From Microthyrium microscopicum (Eukaryota): 64,000 nt of DNA. The position numbers and the translations under genes were made by a program. The notes beneath the pieces are model-generated. The model saw nothing but the letters and a program-made list of their open reading frames with translations. It did no database searches and was not told where the DNA came from. The DNA is taken from assembly GCA_010405405.1 (NCBI GenBank), contig MU004237.1:2243345-2307344 (forward strand). The letters run 5' to 3'. Shown here one piece after another: positions 416 to 50,646 of this stretch. Within the stretch, counting starts at the first letter, position 1. Each line of letters starts with the position of its first letter.

Positions 416-2008
416 CTAAGAGTCGTACAGGTAGTCGACCTCATATTCCAGCCCTGGACCAAATACGACTACTTCCTTCTTGTCATTTTTACATATGGCC
501 GAGAAGTTTTCGGCGTGGATGGACACCGAAGCAGTAATCGCGTGGTTGCGAAGCATTGCACAGAACTGTTTCAATGCTTGTCGTTGTCTGACCTTTTCCT
601 CATCTCCATGAAGCCAGAGAAAGCTTCCCCTTCCACAGTCTTGGAAGCTAATTTTCAGCTGGAGGGTTTCAAGGTTGAAATGTTTGCGGATTAAAGCAAA
701 TAGTGATAGAACGCTCGGCCAATCCTCCTTGGTGAGAGTTTGCTTTAGAACAGATCTCTCGTGACATAGATACCTCGATGTCCCGGTGGTTCCTGGAAGG
801 CCGATAAAATTGAGATGGAGCTTTTTGATAGAATAAAGCCCCTGGGAAGGGATTGCACCAATTTCGTTACAGATATCCGCTGCGGAACCAGACGCTTCGA
901 ACGAATTTTGCCCGTAAAAGATATGAAGAGCCTCGTCTCTTGTTATTGTATTGACTGCGAAAAGTGGCGAAGTACGAAGAAGATTACACCTACAGCTGCT
1001 CGAGTATATAGGGTGAATGCTGTCGCAGAAACATAGACTTTGTGTAGGGAACCGCTGATGTATCATTCCTCCACAGTGTCCGCAGCAATTTTTGATATCT
1101 TGGATCCTTCCGCAAAGGGGTAGTGGGATGTTTTTGCCATTACAATCAGCAAGACCGGCATGTGATAGAATCTTTGCCCAGATTTCGGGGGGGATATAAC
1201 GCAATGATGGTGAGCTTGCAGCTCTTTGGTACGGTTTTGAAACTAAGGCGCGACCAGACGCGGAGAGGATATTTTTTATTATGGCAACATGCGCCGCGTC
1301 ACCGTTGTTAGCCATGGGTCCAAGGCTCCAGGGAATTCCTGAAACTAGATTGTAGCAGCTTTCGAAGACTTTGGTGAAATTGACTGAAAATCTTACTGCT
1401 CCAAGGGGTGGTAAAGAGACTGCAGCTACAGCTGCTAACAGTTCGTTCACTTCGTCCAAACTCTGCACAGCCGTAAAGGCGAAGGTAATTTCGACCTCAT
1501 TGTGGCGATTATGTGAGTGATTCGAGTGAAGGAGCTTCGAAAGTGTTGCGCAGGTCTCCTTGAAGGACGAGAGCCTGTCCTGGAAATCCCCTGGTTCACG
1601 GGACTGAGAGAATGTATCATTACTAAGCTCTATTTCTAGTATTCGTAGATAGCTCCAGACGATAGACGGCAAAGTCTTGATCGTATTTACAGTCTTCCAT
1701 GAGGCATGCATCCGAAATCTGTTCTCGCTGTAGAAGATCTGCAGTGTCTCCATGTACAGTGTTTTGCATGTAACGAGTAGCGCTCCTGGAAAGGAAACAT
1801 AGTCTGGCGCGTCAGGGTACTCTCTATATCCAGTCATGTCGTCGTAACTGGAAACCTCCGGACTGAAGTGGTAATTGTGCGACACTTCCAGGTTTATGCA
1901 TGCGAGCTTGAGGGGATATCCACGGACTAGGCCAGTAAGACGCAGTATGGACAATCGGAGTTCCTTGGGAAGGCCAAGCAGCCCAGCAAAGGGTGTGGGC
2001 AATGACAT
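416..2008 (-). CDS. Fungal F-box-like protein with two tandem modules and a Cys-rich insert
   Basis: Intronless ~530-aa ORF, ATG at 2008. Two F-box-like starts (LLGLPKELRLSILRL; LRYIPPEIWAKILSH). Each is followed later by a matching motif (LLVTCKTLYMETLQIFYSENRF; LFAVNTITRDEALHIFYGQNSF). Confidence 0.7.
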   Translation of the reverse strand: MSLPTPFAGLLGLPKELRLSILRLTGLVRGYPLKLACINLEVSHNYHFSPEVSSYDDMTGYREYPDAPDYVSFPGALLVTCKTLYMETLQIFYSENRFRMHASWKTVNTIKTLPSIVWSYLRILEIELSNDTFSQSREPGDFQDRLSSFKETCATLSKLLHSNHSHNRHNEVEITFAFTAVQSLDEVNELLAAVAAVSLPPLGAVRFSVNFTKVFESCYNLVSGIPWSLGPMANNGDAAHVAIIKNILSASGRALVSKPYQRAASSPSLRYIPPEIWAKILSHAGLADCNGKNIPLPLCGRIQDIKNCCGHCGGMIHQRFPTQSLCFCDSIHPIYSSSCRCNLLRTSPLFAVNTITRDEALHIFYGQNSFEASGSAADICNEIGAIPSQGLYSIKKLHLNFIGLPGTTGTSRYLCHERSVLKQTLTKEDWPSVLSLFALIRKHFNLETLQLKISFQDCGRGSFLWLHGDEEKVRQRQALKQFCAMLRNHAITASVSIHAENFSAICKNDKKEVVVFGPGLEYEVDYLYDS

Positions 2009-2725
2009 CAATGTTCAAGGTGCTGTGGTACCGTGTGGGAAACCACGAAATTTTCAAAATCGAGGTGCACGTAAGGTGATGGAGGGTCTTCCGGCGGATA
2101 TAGAAAGCGAATCGTCGGACGTGTTGATCTGAATTTGGAAGTTGCTGCGGTGCGGGAGGAGTAGTAATACAGGCCAGGGACTACCAGAGACAATGGCGCA
2201 GGATTTATAAATGGGCGGACACTGGAAACTTGGAAACTTTAAGGAAAATCGTACCATACTCCGTAGAGTCAGCTAAGCGTGGCGATGAACCATGGTAATA
2301 CCAGGACCTGGGTCAGGTAACCTCAGCCAGCGGATTCTTCTGGATTGGGTTGCGAGAGCACTGGACGACAATTACCAGCGTAATATTGTGGCAGACTCTG
2401 AACTTGCATGAACCGGTCAATTTGTTGGATCTAAAGTAGGTAAAGCAGCTCCGGCAGCCTTGTTGGAGTAGAACATACAGAGCGTCAAGATCTCAAGAAG
2501 AGCGGATAGACTCACAGGTGCAGCCGCAAAATGTTTGGAAAGCCAATTCAAATGTAGCTCGGACACCTTGTTTATTCATCCACACGAAGTTAGGCTGATC
2601 ATTATCCATACCTCTACCTGATGAAAAATCATCACAAACCAAAACGACACCCGCTATGCTATGATAACCGCTCAGTAGGCATGAGATTGAGAATTACTTA
2701 TGTTCATATGATTCGTAAGTTTGTT

Positions 2726-8585: not shown

Positions 8586-8932
8586 TGGTTCTACCAAGCG
8601 ATGATTTGATGATTGATAATTGAAGAACAACTGTATTTTTATATTTCGGGAGAGCACTTTATAATAGAGCAAATTACGAACCTACAACACTCTTGGATCC
8701 TCGTGTATCTGAAACAATTTGCTACGTATAATCCAGAAGGTATGACAGGTTTGACAAGTCTGCTGCATCTCCCATACTCCATTACCCGACAAATTCAGAT
8801 AAAATGAGAACACTGCAAGTAGCTAGATATAGAAGACCATACTAGGAACCAGCAATCTCACAAGAGTACAACGCCAAGCGCCATATTTAGACACAAAGGT
8901 AAACGAAGAGCCTCTCATTCTTATTTTGAATT

Positions 8933-9765
8933 TTACACCAGTTCAGGATTTGGTCGATTGTAGTCTGGGTCCATGTCATGTATGTAAAGCTCCTTGGTGC
9001 TGTAAGTCTTGGGTGTCCATCGAGCTTCGCCATTGATGTACTGGTAGCACGTAAGGATATCGCTAAGGCAGTCAAGCATACCAATATCACCGCTCATTCT
9101 AAGCATCAAACAGTCCTCCTCCTCGAGATTGTCGGCAGGATTGTCGCCATATTCGTGGAGCCGCCAATAGTGCTCTCCAAAAGAATAGTAAACCTCCACT
9201 TGCTTACAGCCATCCTTCCTAATTACGCACGACCTTTCGGTGTCGTTAATCCACCGGCTTGTTTCCGGGGTAGTCATTTCCTCCAAAATGCTGAGATGAC
9301 CGCACGACCATATCACTCCTATCAGTTCTTTGGTAAGAAGGTCACCAATATCACGTATGATGTGTTGTTTTGGCACGTCAGGCATGGTGAGATCGAGAGA
9401 ACCTTTGACCATAGGCCAGAATTTTGGCGGTACGTCCGCGAAACCGAGAACCTTCGCAAACTCGAGGACAAAAGTGTAATAGTCGCTACTGTGAACCTCG
9501 ATTGTCCAGTTAGGTTCTTTGATGATCCTGTCAAATAAACCTTCGGATTCCTGACGAATGGTTTTGCAAGTTACGAATAGTTTCTTAGCTTGTTCGATGA
9601 GTTGACCATACGACTCGGGACGAAGAGCACAGAGACCAACATCATCCTGCTTAGATAGATCATCTCGACATACGCGGAAGTAAGCTTCGTAAATCATCAT
9701 ACGAATTTTCCCGGAAGAGTAAGCAATTGTGGCGAGGTTCTCGTTGTGCGGTTGTTTGCAGACAT
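8933..9765 (-). pseudogene. F-box-like protein with a -1 frame break in its N-terminal motif (pseudogene, assembly error or recoded gene)
   Basis: ATG at 9765 reads MSANNRTTRTSPQLLTLPGKFV-stop. The -1 frame continues KIRMMIYEAYF to 8933. Joined, LLTLPG(K)IRMMIYE matches the neighbour's LLSLPAEIRLHIFN. Confidence 0.65.
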
Positions 9766-10056
9766 ATTTGTATCTCTCCGTAGCGGGGAACAAAAGGAAC
9801 AGATTTAGCATCGTTTTGTTGAGCGCGAAACCATGGTAGATGAAAGGTGAAGAAATAACGAGGCCATGGCCTTTAAATGATAAAAAGCCTTGAAATTTAA
9901 CTGATGGGTTTTGCTAAAGCTTATCGTCATCTGATTTGTCGACATGACCTACAAGAGGCGAGCACGGAAATGCAATCAACGCACTATTTGAAAGAATCCA
10001 ATCCTCACAGGAGGTAAACAGGTCATCTGCAGTGAGCATTTATTTGACTATCAATT

Positions 10057-10710
10057 TCATTCCCGAGTCTCTAGAGCGAGAATTTGGTTGAAACAGCGGA
10101 ATTCGACCAGATCCGTGAATTCAAGAAAGATATAGTCCCAAGGAATTATGTTGGAGGGTCTAATTTTGAACTCCATCCACGTATCATAGATCCCATTGTG
10201 AGCCATCTCAATGCTGTTAACAAATTCTCCTGGTTTCTCATCCCAAACTTCCGATGCATTTGATTCCATGTCCAGGCAGTCCAAAAAGCCTGTATCTCTA
10301 GCTATGATATCCATAAGCTCTTCGATTGGAAAAACAGGTTGCCTCCAAGGGGCATTGTGGAGAGTCAAGGAGCCTCGTATGTGGAGGCGCTTTGCGCGAA
10401 GGATAGGCCGGAGTGCTAACTGGAAAGTGTTCAAGTCCTCGAATTCTGAAAAGAATATCCAATGCCCAGAACGGATCATGCGACAGAATAGGCTTCTTGA
10501 CTCGGCGTATGTTTGACGACACACGAGGAATAAGTTTTTGGCTTGTTCAAAAGTGTCCAATATATCGTGAGCGTAAAGGTCATCCATAGCCATTTGCTCT
10601 TGCAAGCCCTCCGAATAGTATAAACCACATGAGTGGAGATAGTAGTTGAAAATGTGTAGTCGGATTTCAGCAGGCAGGCTTAGGAGGGTTGTTCGAGAAC
10701 GAGACTCCAT
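10057..10710 (-). CDS. F-box-like hypothetical protein, tandem paralog of 8933-9765
   Basis: Starts MESRSRTTLLSLPAEIRLHIFNYY. Shares EQAKNLFLVCRQTYAESRSLF..W and RGSLTL with the neighbour's EQAKKLFVTCKTIRQESEGLF..W and KGSLDL. Confidence 0.7.
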   Translation of the reverse strand: MESRSRTTLLSLPAEIRLHIFNYYLHSCGLYYSEGLQEQMAMDDLYAHDILDTFEQAKNLFLVCRQTYAESRSLFCRMIRSGHWIFFSEFEDLNTFQLALRPILRAKRLHIRGSLTLHNAPWRQPVFPIEELMDIIARDTGFLDCLDMESNASEVWDEKPGEFVNSIEMAHNGIYDTWMEFKIRPSNIIPWDYIFLEFTDLVEFRCFNQILALETRE

Positions 10711-11177
10711 CTTGATGAGAGACGAGTGTTGATAGTTCTGTTGACGCTTGCGCGGGAAAAGAGGAATGTCGTCAAAGGACAGCAGATTGAGATGGTAATT
10801 TGATAAACTTTGTAGAGAAATGGAAAGGGATGTTGTTAAGTTTTTAGGGGAAGAAGGAAGCATTGGAAGGAAATGCCACGGTTGACAAAGAAGGGTTAGC
10901 GGCTGTCTGGTACTTAATCAATATCTTCCCTCTTCGGTCCCTGCTTCACCATCATGACATTATCGTATGGATATCCGGGCTCTCGAGGGACAAATTAAGT
11001 GAGCCGAACGACTACCCTAACTCCCATCGTCCCTCAAGAGCCAGGTCATTGCGAGCTGACAAACAATCAAGTTTCATTCGCAGTGGGTCTTATGGTTCAA
11101 TACATTCTTCAAACCTCGACTCACATCGTCCAGCCATTATATATCGACAAATACCCGCAGGTGTGTAGAGAGCATCT

Positions 11178-13024
11178 CTATTCATCATCGTCAGCATTTC
11201 CCAGCAGCTCACCAAGCGCACTCTGGAAAGCCTCTGGTCCCCATGATGAGCCTTTTGCTCCTCCATATCCCTTCGGAACTTGCTGAACAGCAGGTTGCCC
11301 AAGTGCTGGCTCAGCCATTATTGGTTTCCATCCAGCGGGCTTAGGGCCCAGCTTGAAGTCTGGTGGTGCAACTGAATCCGCGCGTGGGCTATACTTGAGC
11401 ACATAGGCACCTCGCTCAATTGTGTTGACAAGCACGAAACCGCTTGGGTATTTGGCATAGCTACTCCATGATCCGACGAAGCGTGGTACTCCACCAAGGT
11501 TTTCGTAGTCATCTTCTGGGTAGATGTCGAAGAATCCTAGTTCCTTGACACTGTTGCCGGTGGGGTCGGTCGGGATAGAGCTGATGTTCAAGATGCTGAA
11601 ACCCGCTCCGTAGTTGCTTTGGAAGGATTTGCCGTCGTGGACGTATTGGTTGTGATCGATGGTGGCTCGCTTGCCTTTGTAGTAACCAGTTTGTTTTGGT
11701 TTTGCGAGGCTGGCGATGTTCCAGATATATGTGACAGGGCGGCCATCTTTGGCAAGGCCCTTCTTCTCAACCTCGTCGTACTCATCGTCGAGCAAAAGAT
11801 ATTCCTGGTTGTTGGGATCAAGAACCCAACCTTGGTGGGTATAAGCTGCTCCCTCATAGCTTGTCTTGGAAATGATTGTTGGCTTGACCTTGTCTGTTAC
11901 ATCGTAGCTAAAACCTGTCAGCATATATTTTCAAGTTGACCGGCGATCATACATGGTAAGTGTGTCCTCGTTGTATCCGTAGCAGATCTCACGTCCAACG
12001 TATTGCTTGTCTGGGCCTCTGTACACGAGACATTGCGCATCATGAACGTAACCATCTTGGCCAGCGCATCCAGGTCCCGTGGGGAGAGCTGGGTTTGTCA
12101 TGTTGATGAAGATAATTCCACCTCTGCATTTGTGGGTTCGTGGGACAGCGCCAACTGAGTATGCCATTTGGCTCTCCTCGTTGATGACAACGTTATGGGT
12201 GCTTCCCTCTGGCAAGCCCGTGAAATGTCCAGTGAGGTCCTTCTTGTTGTCAAACTTGACTGGCTTGGTAGGATCGACTGTGAGCAACTACATCCCGATT
12301 TAGCGTTGATCATGAAATTTTTCTGTTGCTGCGCGCGCTCACCTTCTTCATATCGAAGATTTGGATACCATGACCGGTAGCCTCACTTCCAATGAGCATG
12401 TAGTCTTTGTATCCCCGTACTTCTCGCCATATCGAAGGAACAGAATATGCTGGTAGTCGGCCAAGGTAGACCAATTTACCCTCCTTGGTGATCTCTGCAA
12501 AGGCACATCCATCAATCTGGGCAATGGCAGCGAACTCTCGTCCTTCAGGTGATGTCCAACCCCAGGATGACGATCCTTGGCCTGCTGTGCTGCCGAGAGA
12601 TGCGTGGGATTTGAAGTTGTATAAATCAATCTGGAACAAATGGTTAGTGGTTGTCGTTTTCCTTGAGAGATGTTTACTCACGTTGCCACAGAGAAAACTG
12701 TATAAGGGCTCATTGGGTAGCGCAACTGCTCTTCCGTCTTTGCATTGGACAAGGTTATCAATGTCAGGATATTTCGCTGCTTCATAACGACCCATTTCCT
12801 TCTGCTCGGCCCAGTGTTCCTATATCTTGTTAGCCGCAGGATCCAATGTGACTCGCCACTAATCTGAGCAGTTATATACTAACCTGCTTCCTCATCATGA
12901 TACGGTCCATCATGATACCACTGTCATAGAGCTCAGCTCCTGATTTCTCGTCCTTGGCCAATTCTTTGCCAAAAGCGCCCTGCGCCATGGCCGCAGCCAA
13001 ACTGAAAGCTGACAGAAGCTGCAT
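11178..13024 (-). CDS. Secreted choice-of-anchor B family / LVIVD-repeat beta-propeller-like protein, multi-exon
   Basis: ATG at 13024 gives signal peptide MQLLSAFSLAAAMAQGAFG, then ELYDSG. Motifs GSSSWGWTS, SIWREVRGY, GSTHNVVINE, GYVHDAQC, YTHQGW, IDHNQYV, FVGSWSSY, NTIERG are spread over exons separated by GT-AG introns. Confidence 0.82.
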
Positions 13025-17787: not shown

Positions 17788-20700
17788 TCACGACTCAATG
17801 GACCGACCAAATGGAGGCAGCCGTCTTGGAGTGCCATCCACTGTACTGTCCTCGTCATCGTAGAAATCATCAGCACTGAAGCGACCTGTTTCTGCATCTT
17901 CGTCGTAGCCTCCACGTTGCAATAGTGGCGGTGTACGTGGAGGAACACCTCGAAGTGCTTCACCAAGAGATGACGGTCCAGCTGACGAGGACTTGGCCTT
18001 TTCTGCTTGTCGACTAGACATTGATCGGCCAACAACAGCCTGGGATGAAGCTGAAGCTGCACTATCGCGTCGTAGTTCCACGGTATTTGGTGGCTCTGGC
18101 GTTCTTCTCATGTGGGAGGCTGGGGGTGTCATCAATCCCGAGAGGAAGGAAGATGTAGAATTCGGACTGCGTTTGGCAGGGGTGCCACGCCAATCATTGA
18201 GCACTCGTCCTAGTTGCGCAACTCTTGGTGATGCATAGCTTTGGAGGTTGGCAGCGAGGTTACTCGACATGGCAGAAAGTGGCTGAGCATTTCCAGTGCC
18301 TTGATGGCGCTCCTTCTCGTGCATCTCCATCTGAAGACTGGTACGAATGCGAATTGCGGCATTCTGAACAGACTCGCGGTCAAAGTCCTCACGCCCAAGG
18401 AGGTTGATCAGGTCAGAGAGATCATCGACACGAACGCCGAGCAGTTCTCGGAGCCAGCCAATTTCGACATCACGACCTTTGAGAGCTTCGGGGTCAACTT
18501 CACCGACCTGTTGTTCGAGTGCTTCAATGCGAGCTTCGCGCTCTTGTAATTGATCTTGTAGAACATCAATTGACTCTCGCAGCGCCTTTGCCGAAGCACC
18601 TCCTAGATTACCGAACATGGATGGCATGGATGGTAGAACAGCTGCAGGAGATCTTGTTGATTGCGCAGCTTGAGCAGCAGCTTGGGCGGCAGTCTTGGTG
18701 ACTTCGAGCTTTTGATTGAGATGATGTACCTTGTCTTCAAGGAGCTCAATCTTGTTGCTGGCCAAGTTGAGTTGATCTGCGAAATAAGCTTCGGATCGTT
18801 CCTTGTCTTCATAAGCTTGCTCAAGAGATCGTTGACTTTGTTGCTCCATGTCTGCTTGACGCGAAGCATGAGCTTCTCGGAGGAAAGTCTCGGATTGGTT
18901 CTTGTTTTCTATAACATGATCCAGATCGCGACGATGCTGTCTTCGAAGTTCCTCAAGACGTTCTTCAAAGACTTGTCGCTGATCATGAAGAGCGGAAGTT
19001 TTGCCTTCGATCACTTCACGAATGGCATCTCTCTTTGAATCAGCCTCTTGCTCAATGATGAGTTCTTCCTTGGCTCGAGCTGCATCCGCTTCCATCTTTG
19101 CACTTTCCAGATCGACTCGAAGGCGGTTAAGTTCGTCTTCAAGGCCAGCACGAACAATGTTGGCGTGGTTATTTGCTGCATCGATATCCGCTTGCATGAG
19201 AAGACGAGTACGTTGAACTTCGGTTCGAGCCGAGTCACGAGCTTCTTGCCATTCGCGGGCATATTTTTCAGCTGTCTTTTCGTGCTCAGAACTTTCACTT
19301 CGCCATTGGTCAACCTGCTGCTCGAGTTTAGAATTTTCCTTTTGCAGATGCTCGAGGGTGATTGCTGCTTTTTGAGCTTCACGCTCTTTGGAAAGGAGGT
19401 CCTCGACATCTCCTTGTAGCCTATTCTTTTCATGCTGGACATGCTCCAACAAGGCACGCAATTTGGTGTTTTCTTTCATATTTTCGCGTTCTGAGACTTC
19501 CAATCTGTTCATTTCTTGTTCGAAGCGTTCACGAGTGCGAGCTTCTGCTTGAGCCTGCGACTTGATAATTTCGTAACGAGTGCGATGCTCAGCATCCATG
19601 CGTTGCCACTTTGCGCGCTCATCAGCAAGTTTTCCAGTTGCAGAGGCAGTGTCAGCTTGCAATTTGTCCAGACGATCGCGCATAGTTTCGCGAATCCGGA
19701 TAGCTTCCTCGGCTTGGATTTTGAGAGTTCCACTAGCAGCTGCAAGTCTTTCTTTTTCACGGCTAGCATTGTCCATGTCCGCCCGCCACTTGTCGTGAGA
19801 AATGCGGTATTCGTCCAGTGTGGCCTTGAGGGCGACGTTCGTTTCTGATAGTGAAGTGACCTTTACTTGTAGATCAGCACTTGCAGACTCGGCCATTGCG
19901 ACGCGTTGGTCGGCATCTCTGGATTTGTCTTCGAATACGCGCATATGGTCTCCATCATCGCTTGCTGAAGCACGAAGTAATTCCAACTCCTCTTCAGCAA
20001 GTTTGAGTAATCTCTGGCTTTCTGCTTCTTTACGCTCTGCATATTTTCTGGCCTCCGCTTCCTCGGCGATCTTGGCATGAGCTTCAGAATTGCGTTGCAA
20101 AAGTTCTGAAAGAATTGGGTTCTCGTCTTGCATTAAGGTTCGGCTAGATTCTGTTGTAAGAGTTTGACTAGCAACCGCAGATTCTACAGCTGCCTTGATA
20201 TCTTCAAGCTGAGGAAGATTGCTTATATCATATTCTAGTTTGCGACCCATGAGGACGCCTTCCACAGCACGTTGAACATCTTCCGCGGAGAGAATTTGGG
20301 CCGTCGGTACTTGGAAGGCGGATCTCATCTCTTGGACTGCAGCCAGAATCGATGCAGTGGCAACTGTGTCCGATGTGGGTTCGACTACTGGGCGATAAGT
20401 AGCGAGTGCTTCTTGAATGATCAATCTCATCTTTTCATTCTTGCGGTCCCTAACTGGAGAGCGTGACCAAGCGCGTGAGCTATACTCAGGTTCGATTTCA
20501 TCATCCTCATCATCGGCATCGCTGTCCATCGTGGCTCGAGATCTTAAATTGCGGCCAGGTCGTGAAGACGAAATGGTTGACATGGCAGATTCGATAGCCT
20601 TGAGCTGTCTTTCGAGCGGACCAAGACGTTTGCTTAGACTTGAATTGATAACGGAAGAGACATGAGCATCTAGGAACGGTCCACGGGCACGGATTTGTTC

Positions 20701-23700
20701 TTCTTCTCCAGATGAAAAGTCATCCCAGTCGCTGATCGGTACCGTTGGCCCTTCGTTTAATTGGCGAACAGGTGATTCGTAACCAATTGCACCACGACCA
20801 TCACTAAATGGATCTTGAGTTACTGATGCAGAATCCAAGTCTAGGTGGTTTGCAGAGAGTAGGCCACGACGAGGGCTTGGACTTGGAGCATCGCTACGAA
20901 GATTGGCAGGAAGATGTGGTTGAAGAAGTTGCATAGTTGGCATGTCTGTAGGACTCGTTTCTGGCCAAGAATGAGCATCTCGCTCCACGTCAGCTTCTGA
21001 GTTTGACTGGTTGATATGCTGCATAACAGCGTCAATCTCATTGAAGTCTGGCTGTTCCATATCGTCATAGTATCGGACGGATGATGGAAGCTTGTTGGGC
21101 GGCGAAGAAAAGGTCCCTTCCAGGCTCGGAATTTGAAAATCGGCATCAAGACCAGATCTTGATGCGACTGCACTGGATGGTGGCGAGATGAGCTGCTCTG
21201 ATATATTCTGAGCTCGGTCATCTTCATCGGACAAAAACTTGGGGGTAAGCTGAATGCTGTCATCGACATTTTGTTGAACGACAGGAGTATCCGGAGCGCG
21301 AACCGGAGAAATCGGAACAGCAGGAGAAGCATCAAGATGAATCGGTGAATGCTGTGCAGATTCAACTCCATTTGACCTAGGCAAAGAAGACGTTCTGGCG
21401 GGGAAACCGCCTTCAGGTTCCACTGGTAACGGAGAACTTGGAAACAATGGGCTTTCATCGCCGGCGAAAGTTGGCGTAGGCTGAACAAAGGCCTTGCTCG
21501 GAACAATTTCGATTTCCGAGTCAACATGGAGCGGTGCAGTAGGCTCGGAATCTAAGACAGGATTGACTAACGACGCTGGTAGTGGATCTGGATTTGGAAT
21601 GGCAAAGAGAGGAACGTCATCACCATCAGCATCAACCTTGCGCATTCTTTTGGCATTTCCTGCTGCGAGTCGCCCATCTTTGTCAAATATCTCTTCCTCG
21701 GTATCAGTCTTGGCAGAAGGAGGAACGATTGGAACAGCCTTGGACTTCTTGACAGGTTTAGAGAATTCAGTGAAATCAACTCCAGAGAACAGGCGTCCAG
21801 GGGCATCAGAGCTGGAAGTATTAACGCTGCCAAAGGACTTGTCCGGCTCGAAAGCAGGTACGGCAGGATTAAAAACTGGTGCGGTTGGCTTGAGTATTGG
21901 TGCTTTGGAAGCAAAGCTGAACTCTGACTTTGACAAATCTACGCCACCACCAAACCCACCAGCGGTTGGACTGAATTCCGGGGCATTGAGATTGAAAAGA
22001 GTCTTGGTTGGCGTTCCAATAGATCCGGAGCCGATAGAATGTGAGAGTACACTTGACTTTGCTGAAACTATAGAACGAGGAACAAAGTCTTTGACCTTCT
22101 CTGGGTGAAATGCGAAAGCTGAGGCATTGAAGATTGAAGGGTTGAATACAGCAGCAGGATTAGCCCCAGGATTGAACTCTCTTGCAGTAACATTGAGACC
22201 AGAAATCGATGCTTTGGATGAGTGCTGCTTCGCATGCTTGGGCTCAGAGGTTTGTGCCTTGCGCATGAAAGTTGGGTCGTTGTCCCATGGATTTGAGGCC
22301 GTGAAGATGCCCTTGTTCGATGCCATGGTTGGGGGACTACTCATACCGTGTTCGCTTGGATTTGTGTCAATGTCAGAGCTGGCCAGATCAAGGTCGTTGT
22401 AGTTCAATCCATAAGTTCGTCCGACTATAGCAGGAGGCTCCTGGGGTTGTACCTTCTCCACGACTGCCGCTTCTTCTTCTTCTTCCAAAGTGGCGGGTTG
22501 CTCTTGCAACTTCTCCATCATCTTGGGCGACTCCTTCTCCTTTGTCATTACATCCTCAATAACAGCAGGGGCATTTCTCCGCCATTCAGGAACTGCTTTC
22601 GGTGTGGATTCGCGCTCTTCCACTTCAGAGGAGCCCTCTATCGGCGACTTGACATCTTCAACCTTTTGCAAACTTGGCTCGGCCTTTTTGTCCAAACTAA
22701 AGCTACTCTTATGAATGCTTTCTTCCAATTTGGCACTGATATTATGTCGGTGACCAGGTCGAGGATTGAACATCTCTGGCGGAACAGATCGGGTAGCTGG
22801 TACCGGATCCTCCTCAGCTTCAACTTCCAAGACTTCGGCTAGAGTAGAAGCCGGTCTAATAGGCAGTAATTGTTGTTGACGAACCAGTTGTTGTTGCTTT
22901 TGGTGCTGCAATTGGGCAACCAATTCATTTCTCTGTGGAAATTGGAAAGGAGATGTTGAATCAGCCATTGGGTTGAAAGGCGAAATAGGAGATCGCATGT
23001 CTACTGCCCCGCTTGAAACGAGAGGAGAATTACTTGACAATGGAGCATTTTGCATACCAAAAGGTTGTGGTGACCAAGCATTGAAACCCTGTGGACTGAT
23101 GGCTTGTTGGGGGATCATAGGAGGCGATGTAAACATTGATTGTCGATGCATATGCATGCTTTGTCGTGGATTACCCATTGAGGATATGGGCGAAGCAATG
23201 GACCTAGTTGATGTATGATTGGAAGAACCGGGTACAAAACCCATTGGGAAAACATTTCCTCCTGGACCCATCCGTTGACTACCAGCAGATGAGGTTGGAA
23301 GAGGTGGAGAGAATGGAAGACCGGAAAATTGTGACGAGGCTCGTCGAGATAAAGAAGGTTCTGGTGGGTCATCTCCTAAACTGACACCTAGTGCTCTTAA
23401 TTTTGCTTCCTTGAGTTCCCTAACATGATCTTGCCATAGCCTGGGGTTTGGAATTTGAATGCGAGCTTTTCCACTGAATTCTTGAGCTTCGGTCCTGTAA
23501 TCACCCACATCCGGATACACATCACGGTTTTGAGCATAAACAGCTGCCGGTGATTGCTCTTGTTCTGCCGATTGACTCCAGTGTCCGAATCCACGAACGT
23601 CGTATCCTTGATCTTGAAATCTCTTGAGGCGTTCTGCGATTTCTTGTGCGCTCAATGGATACGGCGCTTGACCATCGCCTCCTCTTGGTGGATCCACGGG

Positions 23701-24678
23701 AAGCGCGACCCAGCATGCCTTTCCTTTATGAGTCAATCTCTTCCTAGTCCGTAGTTGTTGCAAACCACCTGCCGAGAGTGTACGTTCGACATTGGGAGAA
23801 GGTGACGGGAGATTGAAATCGAATTGAGCCTGAGAGTGACTTGGAGGTTCGATATGATCCCTGGCAGGTGTCCCACTTGGAGTTGGCTTGCTCATTGGCG
23901 ATGACGCGTATTTAGAAGACTCCATTGCTGAATTTTGAGAGAACAATTGCGGTGGAGTAATATCTTCTTGGCGCAAAGTGCGATTACGCGAGTGTGAACG
24001 ATGCCCGCTAACCTTGCGATTTTGTCCCAACTCTTTTCCTACCAATTTCCCCAGTCGTTGAGAACTAGCTTCCAGATCTTGACCAGTCTTATGATCAGGT
24101 GTACGTTGAACCTTGGAAAAAGACGACAACAAATTCCTTGCTGGAAATTGAGCCGCAATACGCTCTTCAATAGACGGTGCCGAGCCTCGAGGAGTGACTT
24201 GTGAAGGACTCCAACCGGTAGGAGTTGTAGGGCGCGTGGGTGTAACCTCGTACGTACGTTCAAACCTCGACGGGATCAAATGCGACAAGCCGAAAGCGAT
24301 CTGCGGAGACTCTTCCTCGTTTTCGTCCAAACTCAGAGTACTAGAAGCGCGACGATTGGCCCTTTGGTTCGAATGCCTACCCGCTGGTACAACAGACTCG
24401 GGGTAAGGAGATCCCCAACTCGCAGTATAAAAAGTCGCGTCGGATGCGGATTGATGACCCAATGGTGTACGAGGGGTGAAAGGAAGCCTTGGAGGAGCAG
24501 GCAGAGGTGCTATCTCTGGACTGTCTGGACCAAGGGTATCGGTTTCGGAAAGGTTCCCGTATGAATTGTCGTTGTGTGGTGACGATGGTGAATGAAGCTG
24601 ATCGTCAGGCTGATTGATGGTAGCTGAAGCTAGCGTCGGTGGAGACGAAGGCGCCCCAGTTAAGCTACTCGCGGGCAT
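17788..24678 (-). CDS. Large conserved fungal coiled-coil protein (family often labelled 'myosin class II heavy chain'; no motor domain seen)
   Basis: Intronless 2296-aa ORF. Disordered S/P-rich N-terminal half with SDATFYTASWGSPY and repeated A.EF.P motifs. Long heptad E/K/R/Q-rich region, then IGWLRELLGVRVDDL near the C-terminus. Confidence 0.85.
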   Translation of the reverse strand: MPASSLTGAPSSPPTLASATINQPDDQLHSPSSPHNDNSYGNLSETDTLGPDSPEIAPLPAPPRLPFTPRTPLGHQSASDATFYTASWGSPYPESVVPAGRHSNQRANRRASSTLSLDENEEESPQIAFGLSHLIPSRFERTYEVTPTRPTTPTGWSPSQVTPRGSAPSIEERIAAQFPARNLLSSFSKVQRTPDHKTGQDLEASSQRLGKLVGKELGQNRKVSGHRSHSRNRTLRQEDITPPQLFSQNSAMESSKYASSPMSKPTPSGTPARDHIEPPSHSQAQFDFNLPSPSPNVERTLSAGGLQQLRTRKRLTHKGKACWVALPVDPPRGGDGQAPYPLSAQEIAERLKRFQDQGYDVRGFGHWSQSAEQEQSPAAVYAQNRDVYPDVGDYRTEAQEFSGKARIQIPNPRLWQDHVRELKEAKLRALGVSLGDDPPEPSLSRRASSQFSGLPFSPPLPTSSAGSQRMGPGGNVFPMGFVPGSSNHTSTRSIASPISSMGNPRQSMHMHRQSMFTSPPMIPQQAISPQGFNAWSPQPFGMQNAPLSSNSPLVSSGAVDMRSPISPFNPMADSTSPFQFPQRNELVAQLQHQKQQQLVRQQQLLPIRPASTLAEVLEVEAEEDPVPATRSVPPEMFNPRPGHRHNISAKLEESIHKSSFSLDKKAEPSLQKVEDVKSPIEGSSEVEERESTPKAVPEWRRNAPAVIEDVMTKEKESPKMMEKLQEQPATLEEEEEAAVVEKVQPQEPPAIVGRTYGLNYNDLDLASSDIDTNPSEHGMSSPPTMASNKGIFTASNPWDNDPTFMRKAQTSEPKHAKQHSSKASISGLNVTAREFNPGANPAAVFNPSIFNASAFAFHPEKVKDFVPRSIVSAKSSVLSHSIGSGSIGTPTKTLFNLNAPEFSPTAGGFGGGVDLSKSEFSFASKAPILKPTAPVFNPAVPAFEPDKSFGSVNTSSSDAPGRLFSGVDFTEFSKPVKKSKAVPIVPPSAKTDTEEEIFDKDGRLAAGNAKRMRKVDADGDDVPLFAIPNPDPLPASLVNPVLDSEPTAPLHVDSEIEIVPSKAFVQPTPTFAGDESPLFPSSPLPVEPEGGFPARTSSLPRSNGVESAQHSPIHLDASPAVPISPVRAPDTPVVQQNVDDSIQLTPKFLSDEDDRAQNISEQLISPPSSAVASRSGLDADFQIPSLEGTFSSPPNKLPSSVRYYDDMEQPDFNEIDAVMQHINQSNSEADVERDAHSWPETSPTDMPTMQLLQPHLPANLRSDAPSPSPRRGLLSANHLDLDSASVTQDPFSDGRGAIGYESPVRQLNEGPTVPISDWDDFSSGEEEQIRARGPFLDAHVSSVINSSLSKRLGPLERQLKAIESAMSTISSSRPGRNLRSRATMDSDADDEDDEIEPEYSSRAWSRSPVRDRKNEKMRLIIQEALATYRPVVEPTSDTVATASILAAVQEMRSAFQVPTAQILSAEDVQRAVEGVLMGRKLEYDISNLPQLEDIKAAVESAVASQTLTTESSRTLMQDENPILSELLQRNSEAHAKIAEEAEARKYAERKEAESQRLLKLAEEELELLRASASDDGDHMRVFEDKSRDADQRVAMAESASADLQVKVTSLSETNVALKATLDEYRISHDKWRADMDNASREKERLAAASGTLKIQAEEAIRIRETMRDRLDKLQADTASATGKLADERAKWQRMDAEHRTRYEIIKSQAQAEARTRERFEQEMNRLEVSERENMKENTKLRALLEHVQHEKNRLQGDVEDLLSKEREAQKAAITLEHLQKENSKLEQQVDQWRSESSEHEKTAEKYAREWQEARDSARTEVQRTRLLMQADIDAANNHANIVRAGLEDELNRLRVDLESAKMEADAARAKEELIIEQEADSKRDAIREVIEGKTSALHDQRQVFEERLEELRRQHRRDLDHVIENKNQSETFLREAHASRQADMEQQSQRSLEQAYEDKERSEAYFADQLNLASNKIELLEDKVHHLNQKLEVTKTAAQAAAQAAQSTRSPAAVLPSMPSMFGNLGGASAKALRESIDVLQDQLQEREARIEALEQQVGEVDPEALKGRDVEIGWLRELLGVRVDDLSDLINLLGREDFDRESVQNAAIRIRTSLQMEMHEKERHQGTGNAQPLSAMSSNLAANLQSYASPRVAQLGRVLNDWRGTPAKRSPNSTSSFLSGLMTPPASHMRRTPEPPNTVELRRDSAASASSQAVVGRSMSSRQAEKAKSSSAGPSSLGEALRGVPPRTPPLLQRGGYDEDAETGRFSADDFYDDEDSTVDGTPRRLPPFGRSIES

Positions 24679-48275: not shown

Positions 48276-49281
48276 ATCTCGACGATCGTGGTCCGTGGAA
48301 TTGGGAACAGTAAATATTGCAATAAGAAGTCAAGATACACCATTACAGTGTTTCGTGACACATTGTATCAGACATAGATAAAGAGAAATACTCAATCGAG
48401 AGAGTATGAAGAATTTTCAATCCAAGGAACCATTGATAGTGTCTAAGGGATATCATTTCAGCAACTTCTTGTTGTCTTGGAAGAGCTTGAAGTTCGTGAG
48501 TCTCCTCTTTTCCAGATGTTGCCATTCAATAAGAGTATTTCTGTCTTGCCTCCTCGTTTCCAGCTTCAAGTCGGCAATTGCAACTGGTTGGTACAGCGAA
48601 TATCTGCTCGATCGAGCAATCATCCTTGTTTTAGGCGTCAGAAGTCGAGCTTAATAGGTGTCAGTCGAAGATTTCTTCTCAAGATGATGACATGAAGATC
48701 AAGGAGTAAGACAAGAGGGTACAGATCAAGACGAGGCAGTGAAATGTAGTAGCGATGCAAACGAAGAATGTGATAAAATGGCGCTCAATCAACGAGCAAA
48801 ATAACTGGCGAGCCCCGCCAGCTTCGATGGCTGCCACCGGCGCTACTAAGCAAGAGGTGCTATATTTTCCATCAGATTCGATAAATTGTGCCAGTGTGAG
48901 CGCCCTTGACAGTAAAAAAAGCACTCGATACCAGAGCGTGGTGTGTGGGATCCATCCAAGTTGATGGGCGCAGGCCGGTTCTTATAATGCAATAATGGTG
49001 TTCATTATAGGCGAACCTATCGCACCAGAACTCGTTCACCACCAAGGGTTTGGAGAGAGGAGGTTGAATCGTACCTCCTCCTTGAATCCCTCCTGCTCAG
49101 TTCTTGGGACCAGTTCCTTCACCCGTCCATCTACCTCTCCATTCAGCCCACCTATTTGAAGTTGCCACTGAGCAAAACCAAACTCTCGCTCCTTCAACCT
49201 TCTCCATCTTGCGCATCCATCAAGTTCATCTATCAATCACCATCGCGACAATCGCCTTGATTCCATCAAATATCATAAATT

Positions 49282-50646
49282 ATGTCGTCTCCACCAGAAT
49301 CTCCCCTGTCCGATATCTCCTCCGAGGAACTCCCGGAAGACATCCCACAATCCGCCCGCTCCATTTCCATCTCACCATTCCCCGAAAGCCGCCCTGTAAA
49401 GCGTCAGCGCGTGAGTGCAGGAGGTAGCAACGCCCATCGACGGCAATCCGCAATGCAATCTCATCCTACTGCCTTTGCAGACCATGCCGATGATGCCTCT
49501 GTCATGGTCGCTGGTGTGCCTAGTGACGTGGACATATCCTCAGATACGGAAGGCAGTGTGCCAGGCTCCATCCATAACCTACATCTTGGTACACTAGACG
49601 AGGACGACGACAAGGCTGCTGCAGGAGGAAAGGAACAAATCAGCCATTGCCGATGGGAAGGATGTGAAGCTGGCGATCAAGGAAACATGGACCTCTTGGT
49701 CAAACATCTACACGATGAACACATTCATGCGCGTCAAAAGAAGTACTCCTGTGAATGGATTGATTGCCCTCGCAAAGGAATTGCACATGCCAGTGGTTAT
49801 GCTCTACGTGCTCATATGAGAAGTCATACTAGAGAAAAGCCATTCTATTGCACTCTACCTGGCAAGTTTCTTCCTTATTAGACGGGAACTTTTGCTAATT
49901 GAACGTCAGAATGCGACCGATCATTCACAAGATCCGATGCTCTCGCCAAGCACATGCGAACAGTCCACGAGACTGAAGCTCTCCGTCCATCCGATCCTGT
50001 CCCTAAACATCATTCCTCAAACCCCCAGAATAAATCCCAGCGTCTACGACTTACATTCAACAAATGGTCCGCAGGGTCAAACAATGGTAAAGATGATGAC
50101 GCCATGACTGCCTCATCGAAGCAAAAGGAGTCACCACTTTCGCCAACCATACCCACGATCGAAGACATAGACTATGAAAAAAACAACGCAACTTTCACCC
50201 GTGATCCTGCTACCGGTGAATGGATCCCCCACTTCCCTGACGACATTAGCTTCTCTGAGAAAGACCTTGCCTTGGGACCTGCCAAGCTCTACCAAAAGCT
50301 CAAATACCAGTACCAATGGGCCTGCGAAGAGCAAGACGAGCTCACCCAGCAGATCGAGGCCGCCGAGAAAGTCCGCAAAGCCGAATGGATGGCCAAAGAA
50401 CTTGTCCTACAAGACGTGATCGACATCGAAAAAGCTATTGTACCTGACGACGATGATATGACCATCACTAAGACCGAGGAGGACATGGACATTGATGCCG
50501 ATCTTGATGAGGAGCGAGAGATGAGCATGGATCCCGACGAAGACGACGACCAAACCCATCTCGATGATTCAGTAGTCGGTCTCCCGCCGTTGCCGTATGG
50601 TAGCCCAGCTCAGACTTGGTCTGCTCCCGTAGCGCAAGAAGGATAG
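49282..50646 (+). CDS. iec1: C2H2 zinc-finger protein, INO80 subunit Iec1-like
   Basis: CRWEGC..HLHDEH, CEWIDC..HASGYALRAHMRSHTREKPFYCTLP|ECDRSFTRSDALAKHMRTVHETEALRPSDPVPK, coiled C-terminus W.AKELVL. GC-AG intron 49862-49909. Confidence 0.8.

Follow-up and report, generated by a model that had tools for sequence, protein, structure and literature searches.

A slippery heptamer at a frame break in a Microthyrium microscopicum gene most likely marks the loss of one base

A 64-kb stretch of DNA from Microthyrium microscopicum (GCA_010405405.1, contig MU004237.1, positions 2,243,345-2,307,344 of the forward strand; here called the window, whose own numbering is used throughout) contains a minus-strand gene, gene A, whose coding sequence is split between two reading frames. 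The split falls exactly at GGGAAAA, a heptamer in the register required for -1 ribosomal frameshifting, and a first-pass annotation of this DNA had put forward programmed frameshifting as one explanation. We are inclined, narrowly, to regard the break in gene A as an ordinary frameshift lesion, a real one-base deletion that has left a young pseudogene or a truncated gene. We take the heptamer to be, most likely, what the lost base left behind and not a programmed signal.

Read from ATG 9765, the 0 frame of gene A gives MSANNRTTRTSPQLLTLPGKFV and then meets two consecutive stops, TGA at 9699-9697 and TGA at 9696-9694. The family-defining motif has its first half, LLTLPG, in this remnant, which passes through the codons CCG GGA AAA at 9714-9706. 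The assembly sequence at 9712-9704 is GGGAAAATT. Across the break the -1 frame reads ...GKIRMMIYEAYF... and remains open to the stop at 8935-8933, so that the -1 open reading frame (ORF) comprises 257 codons from ATT 9706 or 255 codons from the Met-Met at 9700, with no further lesion. The first-pass annotation had described the frame and stop of ATG 9765, the G_GGA_AAA register and a -1 frame open for about 255 codons, and each of its sequence statements matches what we find. It had passed over two features, a candidate intron donor on the GTA-TGA at the 0-frame stop and an upstream ATG at 9811. The 0-frame TGA overlaps the first ATG of the -1 frame as ATGA (9697-9700), an arrangement like that at termination-reinitiation sites, and this overlap follows automatically from reading an ancestral ATG-ATG out of frame. 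Coordinates of the features are given in Table 1.

To score gene A independently of its own sequence, we used a family hidden Markov model (HMM) made from its tandem paralog, gene B, and five distant homologs (six sequences, gene A excluded), against which the alternative products were scored. The read-through product, read in the 0 frame to 9706 and in the -1 frame thereafter, scored 59.1 bits, or 58.6 bits with an X at the break. The ORF from ATG 9811 reached 48.4 bits and the product starting at the Met-Met 41.9 bits, and models with an intron of 53 or 56 nucleotides (nt), described below, scored 30.3 and 29.9 bits. The 0-frame N-terminus adds approximately 10.7 bits over the alternative-frame N-terminus. 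As a control, random stop-free 20-residue peptides from the window were placed before the -1 ORF; only 2 of 3000 reached 59.1 bits (mean 48.9, standard deviation 1.5), in a sample from which the paralog's own motif was not removed. The HMM scores show that the ancestral ORF of gene A crossed the break. The first-pass claim that a -1 slip restores a motif aligning with that of the paralog is also borne out. Paralog B and the gene A -1 ORF share 26% identity over 135 residues (E = 8e-10). The two halves of the motif lie in two frames without a gap, a pattern that points to a one-base loss or to recoding and not to an intron.

The relatives define what was present at the break. Paralog B, which carries LLSLPAEIRLHIFN, and all five homologs (P0004, P0005, P0006, P0008 and P0009; 173-232 amino acids (aa), E from 2.4e-11 to 5.8e-4) have a leader of approximately 5-60 residues followed by [FL]x[LFI]PxE[IL]RxxIYxxY. 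Examples are FPGEIR in P0004 and LPLEIRMMVYEY in P0008, the latter also having the Met-Met. A continuous frame and a glutamate in the LPxE[IL]R-type motif are found in 6/6 of these relatives. At the position of the invariant glutamate, gene A has AAA (Lys), which is one base short of GAA. An alignment of seq­uences from all seven genes, with the gene A -1 ORF as one row, has five invariant columns, and gene A conforms in all five. When the six frames of the window were searched for [LFI]P.E[IL]R..[IVL], two occurrences were found, one in paralog B and one in a DUF7730 gene at 419-2014. The split motif of gene A lies far outside chance expectation.

The homologs came from a profile search of 1.84 billion representative proteins, which at E <= 0.001 returned eight proteins: the window's own two, the five distant homologs and one repeat artefact. 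The artefact, P0007 (908 aa), gave eight short profile matches (E = 9.6e-05) and is highly repetitive, with units of about 60 residues of the form MMFARVPF...HHMSKPSELYPARWCLPGFPSFSPHVQT; it was judged spurious and left out of all counts. Word-indexed searches of 5.8 billion proteins with gene A and paralog B as queries returned only the queries themselves, and a word-indexed search with a seven-sequence profile returned only the window's own proteins and the known distant homologs P0008 and P0009. P0009 is named in the database as a hypothetical protein of Microthyrium microscopicum. No ortholog of gene A was found in the word-indexed or profile protein searches.

We propose that the ancestral gene A was a single exon of about 277 codons, from ATG 9765 to the stop ending at 8933, standing in tandem with paralog B, and that its codons at the present break were CCG GGA GAA ATT, encoding P-G-E-I. 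One base would then have been lost within LPxE[IL]R. We infer that this was, most simply, the G of the invariant glutamate codon, which would turn GGA GAA ATT into GGAAAATT; with the preceding codon included, loss of this G from CCG GGA GAA ATT would yield CCGGGAAAATT. This single event would do three things, shifting the frame, creating GGGAAAA and turning ATG-ATG into A-TGA-TGA with its two stops. An alternative loss, from five A residues to four, would leave the same DNA with lysine as the original residue, and is less likely because glutamate is invariant at that position. Since loss of the G of GAA explains both the break and the heptamer, and since its restoration gives the consensus LPGEIR, the sequence supports a one-base deletion or an assembly error. 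The first-pass annotation had itself named a 1-nt deletion (GAA>AA) or an assembly error as the more parsimonious explanation, and our results agree with that preference.

In its present form, gene A would yield a 22-residue peptide from ribosomes that start at ATG 9765. Some leaky scanning or re-initiation at 9700 could produce a 255-aa protein without LLTLPGxIR, re-initiation being possible because the stop overlaps the ATG as ATGA and because the upstream ORF is short. If transcripts began upstream of 9811, the product would instead be 292 aa long, with an unrelated N-terminus. In either truncated product, the motif thought to dock such proteins would be halved. Low-level, unprogrammed slippage on GGGAAAA could additionally give traces of the full-length protein, in the sense termed 'compensatory' in excerpts of PMC5009743.

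Several observations weigh against an ordinary lesion. The loss of each base in turn was simulated for 16 ORFs of the window, 25,020 positions in all, and few of these deletions left a heptamer in register no more than one codon away: 60/25,020 (0.24%) did so under a strict definition (Y = A or T, Z not G) and 161/25,020 (0.64%) when any XXXYYYZ was counted. A lesion must accept this real coincidence, of 1 in 150 to 1 in 400. Additionally, there is no second lesion in the 257 downstream codons and all invariant columns are kept, meaning that the lesion is very recent, that the gene is still used or that the break is an assembly artefact. Lastly, the -1 frame is also free of stops upstream of the break as far as 9913 (9709-9913, 68 codons), an opening that simple arithmetic from base composition makes about 2.5% likely by chance. 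This upstream opening could be a coincidence or could reflect a newly used start.

A newly used start is part of a reading that we consider improbable, in which the deletion is real and the gene is functional in its new form, its 255-aa (Met-Met 9700) or 292-aa (ATG 9811) product being kept by selection. The intact downstream ORF with all of its invariant residues, the ATGA stop-start overlap and the 68 open codons upstream, which include an ATG with A at -3 (ATG 9811), are all consistent with it. However, expression of either product is purely presumed, the family-defining motif would be halved, and a recent lesion or an assembly error would account for the intact ORF just as well. In eukaryotes, ribosomes usually re-initiate inefficiently when the AUG directly overlaps the stop. 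The N-terminus of the ATG-9811 ORF is unrelated to the family, and its family alignment starts only at residue 35.

An assembly or sequencing indel would leave the same picture. The genome would then have one more base than the assembly, in which five A residues were read as four or GAA lost its G, and gene A would be an intact, ordinary family member of 277 aa. We regard this as possible though doubtful. Gene A has one lesion only, its 257 codons past the break show no further defect and keep every family-invariant position, and the break lies at a short homopolymer in a 2.41-Mb contig whose size suggests a long-read assembly. Homopolymer under-calling is a typical residual error of such assemblies. 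Against an indel of this kind, four to five A residues make a short run for a homopolymer error, and the family consensus indicates that the missing base is a G outside a homopolymer. Among the window genes that we inspected, gene A alone showed an unexplained break in frame; ORFs of 2296, 864 and 802 aa run without interruption. We also screened 18 ORF junctions for a GT donor and an AG acceptor that restore the frame, with a second screen that additionally required G at +5. Frame-restoring candidates were found at 14 junctions, 11 of which read as intron solutions of 45-63 nt, and were lacking at 4. Screens that gave no candidate numbered five, those of the CAP-Gly and UBC junctions in the first round and those of the zinc-finger, next-LRR and ferric reductase junctions in the second; the CAP-Gly and UBC junctions gave candidates on re-screening, in one case a single candidate of 61 nt, and the zinc-finger junction needs a GC donor, which the screen could not detect. 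These observations weigh somewhat against a generally error-ridden assembly. We infer that the loss is genomic rather than confined to the assembly.

Removal of the stop by a spliceosomal intron was also considered. The candidate, 9647..9702 on the minus strand, would use the donor GTATGA at 9702 and an acceptor at 9650 (53 nt) or 9647 (56 nt), giving a protein of 258-259 aa that reads MSANN...LPGKF up to the junction and (Q)DDVGL... after it. Before the stop, no donor other than GT 9702 restores the long ORF. Its two shortest solutions match the other introns of the window in length (45-63 nt), and a homology-consistent intron of 45 nt at 11952-11908 also fits with GTATGA as its donor. However, splicing would delete IRMMIYEAYFRVCRDDLSK(Q), 17-18 codons whose aligned counterpart in every relative is the conserved EIRxxIYxxY helix, and it lowers the family HMM score from 59.1 to about 30 bits, a drop of about 29. 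The window's other introns have a CTRAY-like box with its branch A approximately 6-13 nt before the acceptor (counted by eye); the only CTAAG here overlaps the 53-nt acceptor or lies 2 nt from the 56-nt acceptor. No relative has an intron at this position. We rejected the candidate and consider an intron here very improbable; splicing at this site would be cryptic at most.

The hexamer of this rejected donor recurs in a neighboring gene. The three-ORF gene at 11181-12819 (-), for which no Pfam match was found, has an in-frame stop between 11934 and 11930 that is removed by the 45-nt intron 11952-11908 with its GTATGA donor, and a 55-nt intron at 12342-12288 joins its next ORF.

Programmed -1 frameshifting on G_GGA_AAA would produce a 277-aa protein, LLTLPGKIRMMIYE..., from the fraction of ribosomes that slip, while the rest would stop after 22 codons. 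In its favor, homology changes frame precisely at the heptamer, which has the correct register, and continues in a -1 ORF of 257 codons that is homologous to the family, and a chance heptamer after random deletion is as rare as the simulation indicates (0.24-0.64%). GGGAAAA conforms to the X_XXY_YYZ rule with Z = A, C or U as given in excerpts of 10.1101/2021.04.23.441185, and it is listed as a predicted polerovirus shift site in the available portion of PMC10674516. A conserved cellular -1 frameshift does exist in Pezizomycotina, PaYIP3, as described in parts of PMC5009743 and PMC3777964. While the in-register heptamer and the long homologous -1 ORF of the first-pass annotation stand, the remaining evidence argues against a programmed event, which we judge to be highly unlikely.

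Folding found no stimulatory structure after the heptamer among nested structures, pseudoknots not being modelled explicitly. The 120 nt that follow have a minimum free energy of -26.6 kcal/mol compared with -28.25 +/- 3.74 kcal/mol for shuffled sequences (z = +0.44), and 134/200 shuffles were at least as stable. For windows of 40-100 nt starting 0-10 nt past the heptamer, 134-196 of the 240-260 positions compared elsewhere in gene A were at least as stable, placing the site at or below the gene median. The sole local hairpin is the TTCGTA/TACGAA pairing without spacer that the first-pass annotation had described as weak. It has 6 bp and an 8-nt loop and abuts the heptamer, beginning at the first base past GGGAAAA, and a second 6-nt complement (9620-9625) competes for the same arm. 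Given the size of the ribosome footprint, a hairpin with no spacer would already be inside the ribosome while the heptamer is decoded. The shift-site search described in excerpts of 10.1101/2021.04.23.441185 allows a spacer of 3-10 nt. An Rfam scan of 9300-9900 gave nothing relevant, the only match being a chance one to RT-2 (score 10.9 bits, cutoff 40, E = 4.5).

The products of a slip argue in the same direction. The slip product has Lys in LPGKIR, where Glu is found in 6/6 relatives and in the DUF7730 gene, and the 0-frame product amounts to a stub of 22 residues that has no domain. One frame serves to read paralog B and every homolog. According to excerpts of PMC5009743, the two-product frameshifts known so far join two functional parts, and cellular -1 frameshifting in eukaryotes is described as rare and partly disputed in the portions of PMC11451614 and 10.1101/2021.04.23.441185 available. 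Were recoding nevertheless at work, gene A would be a second, independent nuclear -1 frameshift outside retroelements in filamentous ascomycetes, placed at codon 20 and lacking a classical downstream stimulator, a proposition we give very little credence. Slippage would perhaps depend on a nascent-peptide or trans-acting cue, and it is equally improbable that the outcome is a throttled output of an F-box-like adaptor with a 22-residue default peptide.

Table 1. Positions of features at and around the gene A frame break, in window coordinates.
Feature	Position	Strand	Basis or remark
Gene A start ATG	9765-9763	-	sequence
0-frame remnant, 22 codons, MSANNRTTRTSPQLLTLPGKFV	9697..9765	-	ATG 9765 to TGA 9699-9697; holds LLTLPG
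Heptamer GGGAAAA (G_GGA_AAA)	9706..9712	-	X_XXY_YYZ register of ATG 9765, exactly at frame break
-1-frame body, IRMMIYEAYF...	8933..9706	-	stop 8935-8933; second half of motif and rest of family domain
Met-Met (ATG ATG) in -1 frame	9695..9700	-	sequence; possible re-initiation or leaky-scanning start, by a presumed expression route
Upstream ATG in -1 frame	9809..9811	-	would give the 292-aa ORF, P0002 in the protein database
6-bp hairpin UUCGUA/UACGAA (DNA TTCGTA/TACGAA), 8-nt loop	9686..9705	-	arms 9705-9700 and 9691-9686
Tandem paralog B, 268 aa, continuous frame through LLSLPAEIRLHIFNYYL	10060-10863 or 10057..10863	-	alignment, motif

A stop-free frame of 202 aa lies antisense to gene A at 8930-9535 (+). 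It has no Pfam match and is probably a shadow ORF of the coding strand.

The identity of the family itself is best stated with care. The 'F-box-like' label of the first-pass annotation holds for the motif, which appears to be its sole basis for genes A and B; the Pfam F-box cutoffs are not reached, and no solved F-box structure was matched by the model of paralog B. No protein of the family rises above a curated Pfam cutoff. In Pfam, the gene A -1 ORF has no F-box match and nothing above cutoff for DUF7730 or 2EXR. Paralog B gives 13.9 bits for F-box-like_2, below the cutoff of 21.6 (E = 0.058), and likewise nothing above cutoff for DUF7730 or 2EXR. P0008 comes close to both families without reaching either (DUF7730, 26.1 against a cutoff of 27; 2EXR, 20.7 against 24.8), and P0005 and P0009 are sub-threshold for 2EXR, making three sub-threshold homologs in all. 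A feature search of the ESM Atlas placed paralog B near ascomycete clusters named hypothetical, DUF7730, 2EXR or F-box with a score of 0.97, which serves as a lead only. An AlphaFold2 model of paralog B, built from a seven-row alignment, was mediocre (mean predicted local distance difference test score 61.7, approximately 48-64 in the motif region), and a Foldseek comparison of this mediocre model with the PDB gave no matches at E <= 0.001, with a best template modelling (TM) score of 0.23. Our literature search on 2EXR and DUF7730 found nothing on these families; the string '2EXR' is used for other things and 'DUF7730' had zero occurrences.

The genes A and B resemble the ascomycete families DUF7730 (PF24864), 2EXR (PF20150) and F-box-like_2 (PF13013) in having a short leader followed by an N-terminal [LF]x[LFI]PxE[IL]RxxIY, a length of roughly 200-280 aa and relatives only in ascomycetes. 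Neither A nor B reaches the gathering cutoff of any of the three. We consider it safest to speak of a sparse ascomycete family that borders on DUF7730/2EXR. This family is fast-evolving and lineage-restricted, and in families of that kind loss of one tandem duplicate is commonplace, which favors a lesion in gene A. The window holds a third gene with an F-box-like motif, the 532-aa ORF at 419-2014 (-). It matches DUF7730 (3.1e-09, 36.9 bits) and has LLGLPKELRLSIL near its N-terminus, with glutamate in LPKELR.

The window is fungal nuclear DNA of 46.6% G+C with short introns and typical ascomycete genes, including those for a GH5 cellulase (at about 7.3-8.4 kb, on the far side of gene A from paralog B), NPR3, an NAD(P) transhydrogenase, a ferric reductase, a SET-domain protein, and BTB and UBC proteins. 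An uninterrupted ORF of 2296 aa at 17791-24678 (-) has no Pfam family at E <= 1e-5. At 49279-50643 (+) lies a C2H2 zinc-finger gene in which one finger, CTLPG followed by ECDRSFTRSDALAKH, is joined only by removing an intron of about 49 nt with its junction at approximately 49862-49910. By eye this is an apparent GC-AG intron with the donor GCAAGT, and the GT-only screen found nothing there. A tblastn match of the gene A N-terminal peptide at 49828-49872 (60% identity over 15 aa) was rejected as a family member, as it is the CTLPG end of this zinc-finger exon.

If the break is indeed a lesion, it is a matter of annotation only. The locus should be labeled a frameshifted pseudogene or flagged for checking at the level of reads, and neither the 53/56-nt intron model nor the 292-aa ORF from ATG 9811 would be suitable for gene A. 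It also offers a cautionary example, in that one base lost from GGA-GAA-A makes a textbook slippery heptamer. Because a one-base loss can manufacture the heptamer, a heptamer at a frame break is not by itself evidence of recoding. If recoding were true, gene A would join PaYIP3 as just the second cellular gene of Pezizomycotina known to use a -1 frameshift, and would be the first whose shift site lies close to the N-terminus and lacks a stimulatory structure. That would be of interest to the recoding field.

Among known systems, a comparable case of recoding is PaYIP3, a Rab-GDI complex dissociation factor. Like gene A, it is a nuclear, non-retroelement gene of a filamentous ascomycete in which a -1 shift joins two ORFs, according to parts of PMC3777964. 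However, excerpts of PMC5009743 place its shift near the end of the conserved ORF, giving two functional forms, with a pseudoknot 2 nt downstream, while the break in gene A is at codon 20, within the conserved motif, with no structure found and a 22-residue 0-frame stub.

G_GGA_AAC -1 signals are used by PEG10, luteoviruses and others. These retroviral-type signals share with gene A the register and the first six bases of the heptamer, but in them a pseudoknot or stem-loop follows after a spacer of several nt and two full-length domains are joined, none of which applies to gene A. GGGAAAC is among the retrovirus-like shift sites in the available portion of 10.1101/2021.04.23.441185. In corrective or compensatory frameshifting, as outlined in excerpts of PMC5009743, an indel in the DNA is partly offset by unprogrammed slippage, which the shift-prone run of gene A could also permit. 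Those excerpts describe most known cases as mitochondrial or viral, and slippage in gene A is only conjectured.

The nearest likeness is to frameshifted pseudogenes, unitary or duplicate, and to residual assembly indels. The break in gene A departs from the usual frameshifted pseudogene in leaving a canonical in-register heptamer and in having no second lesion. Like them, gene A has one missing base, gapless homology that continues in the adjacent frame and a stop within two codons; additionally, an intact paralog adjoins it, and its relatives are all read in a single frame.

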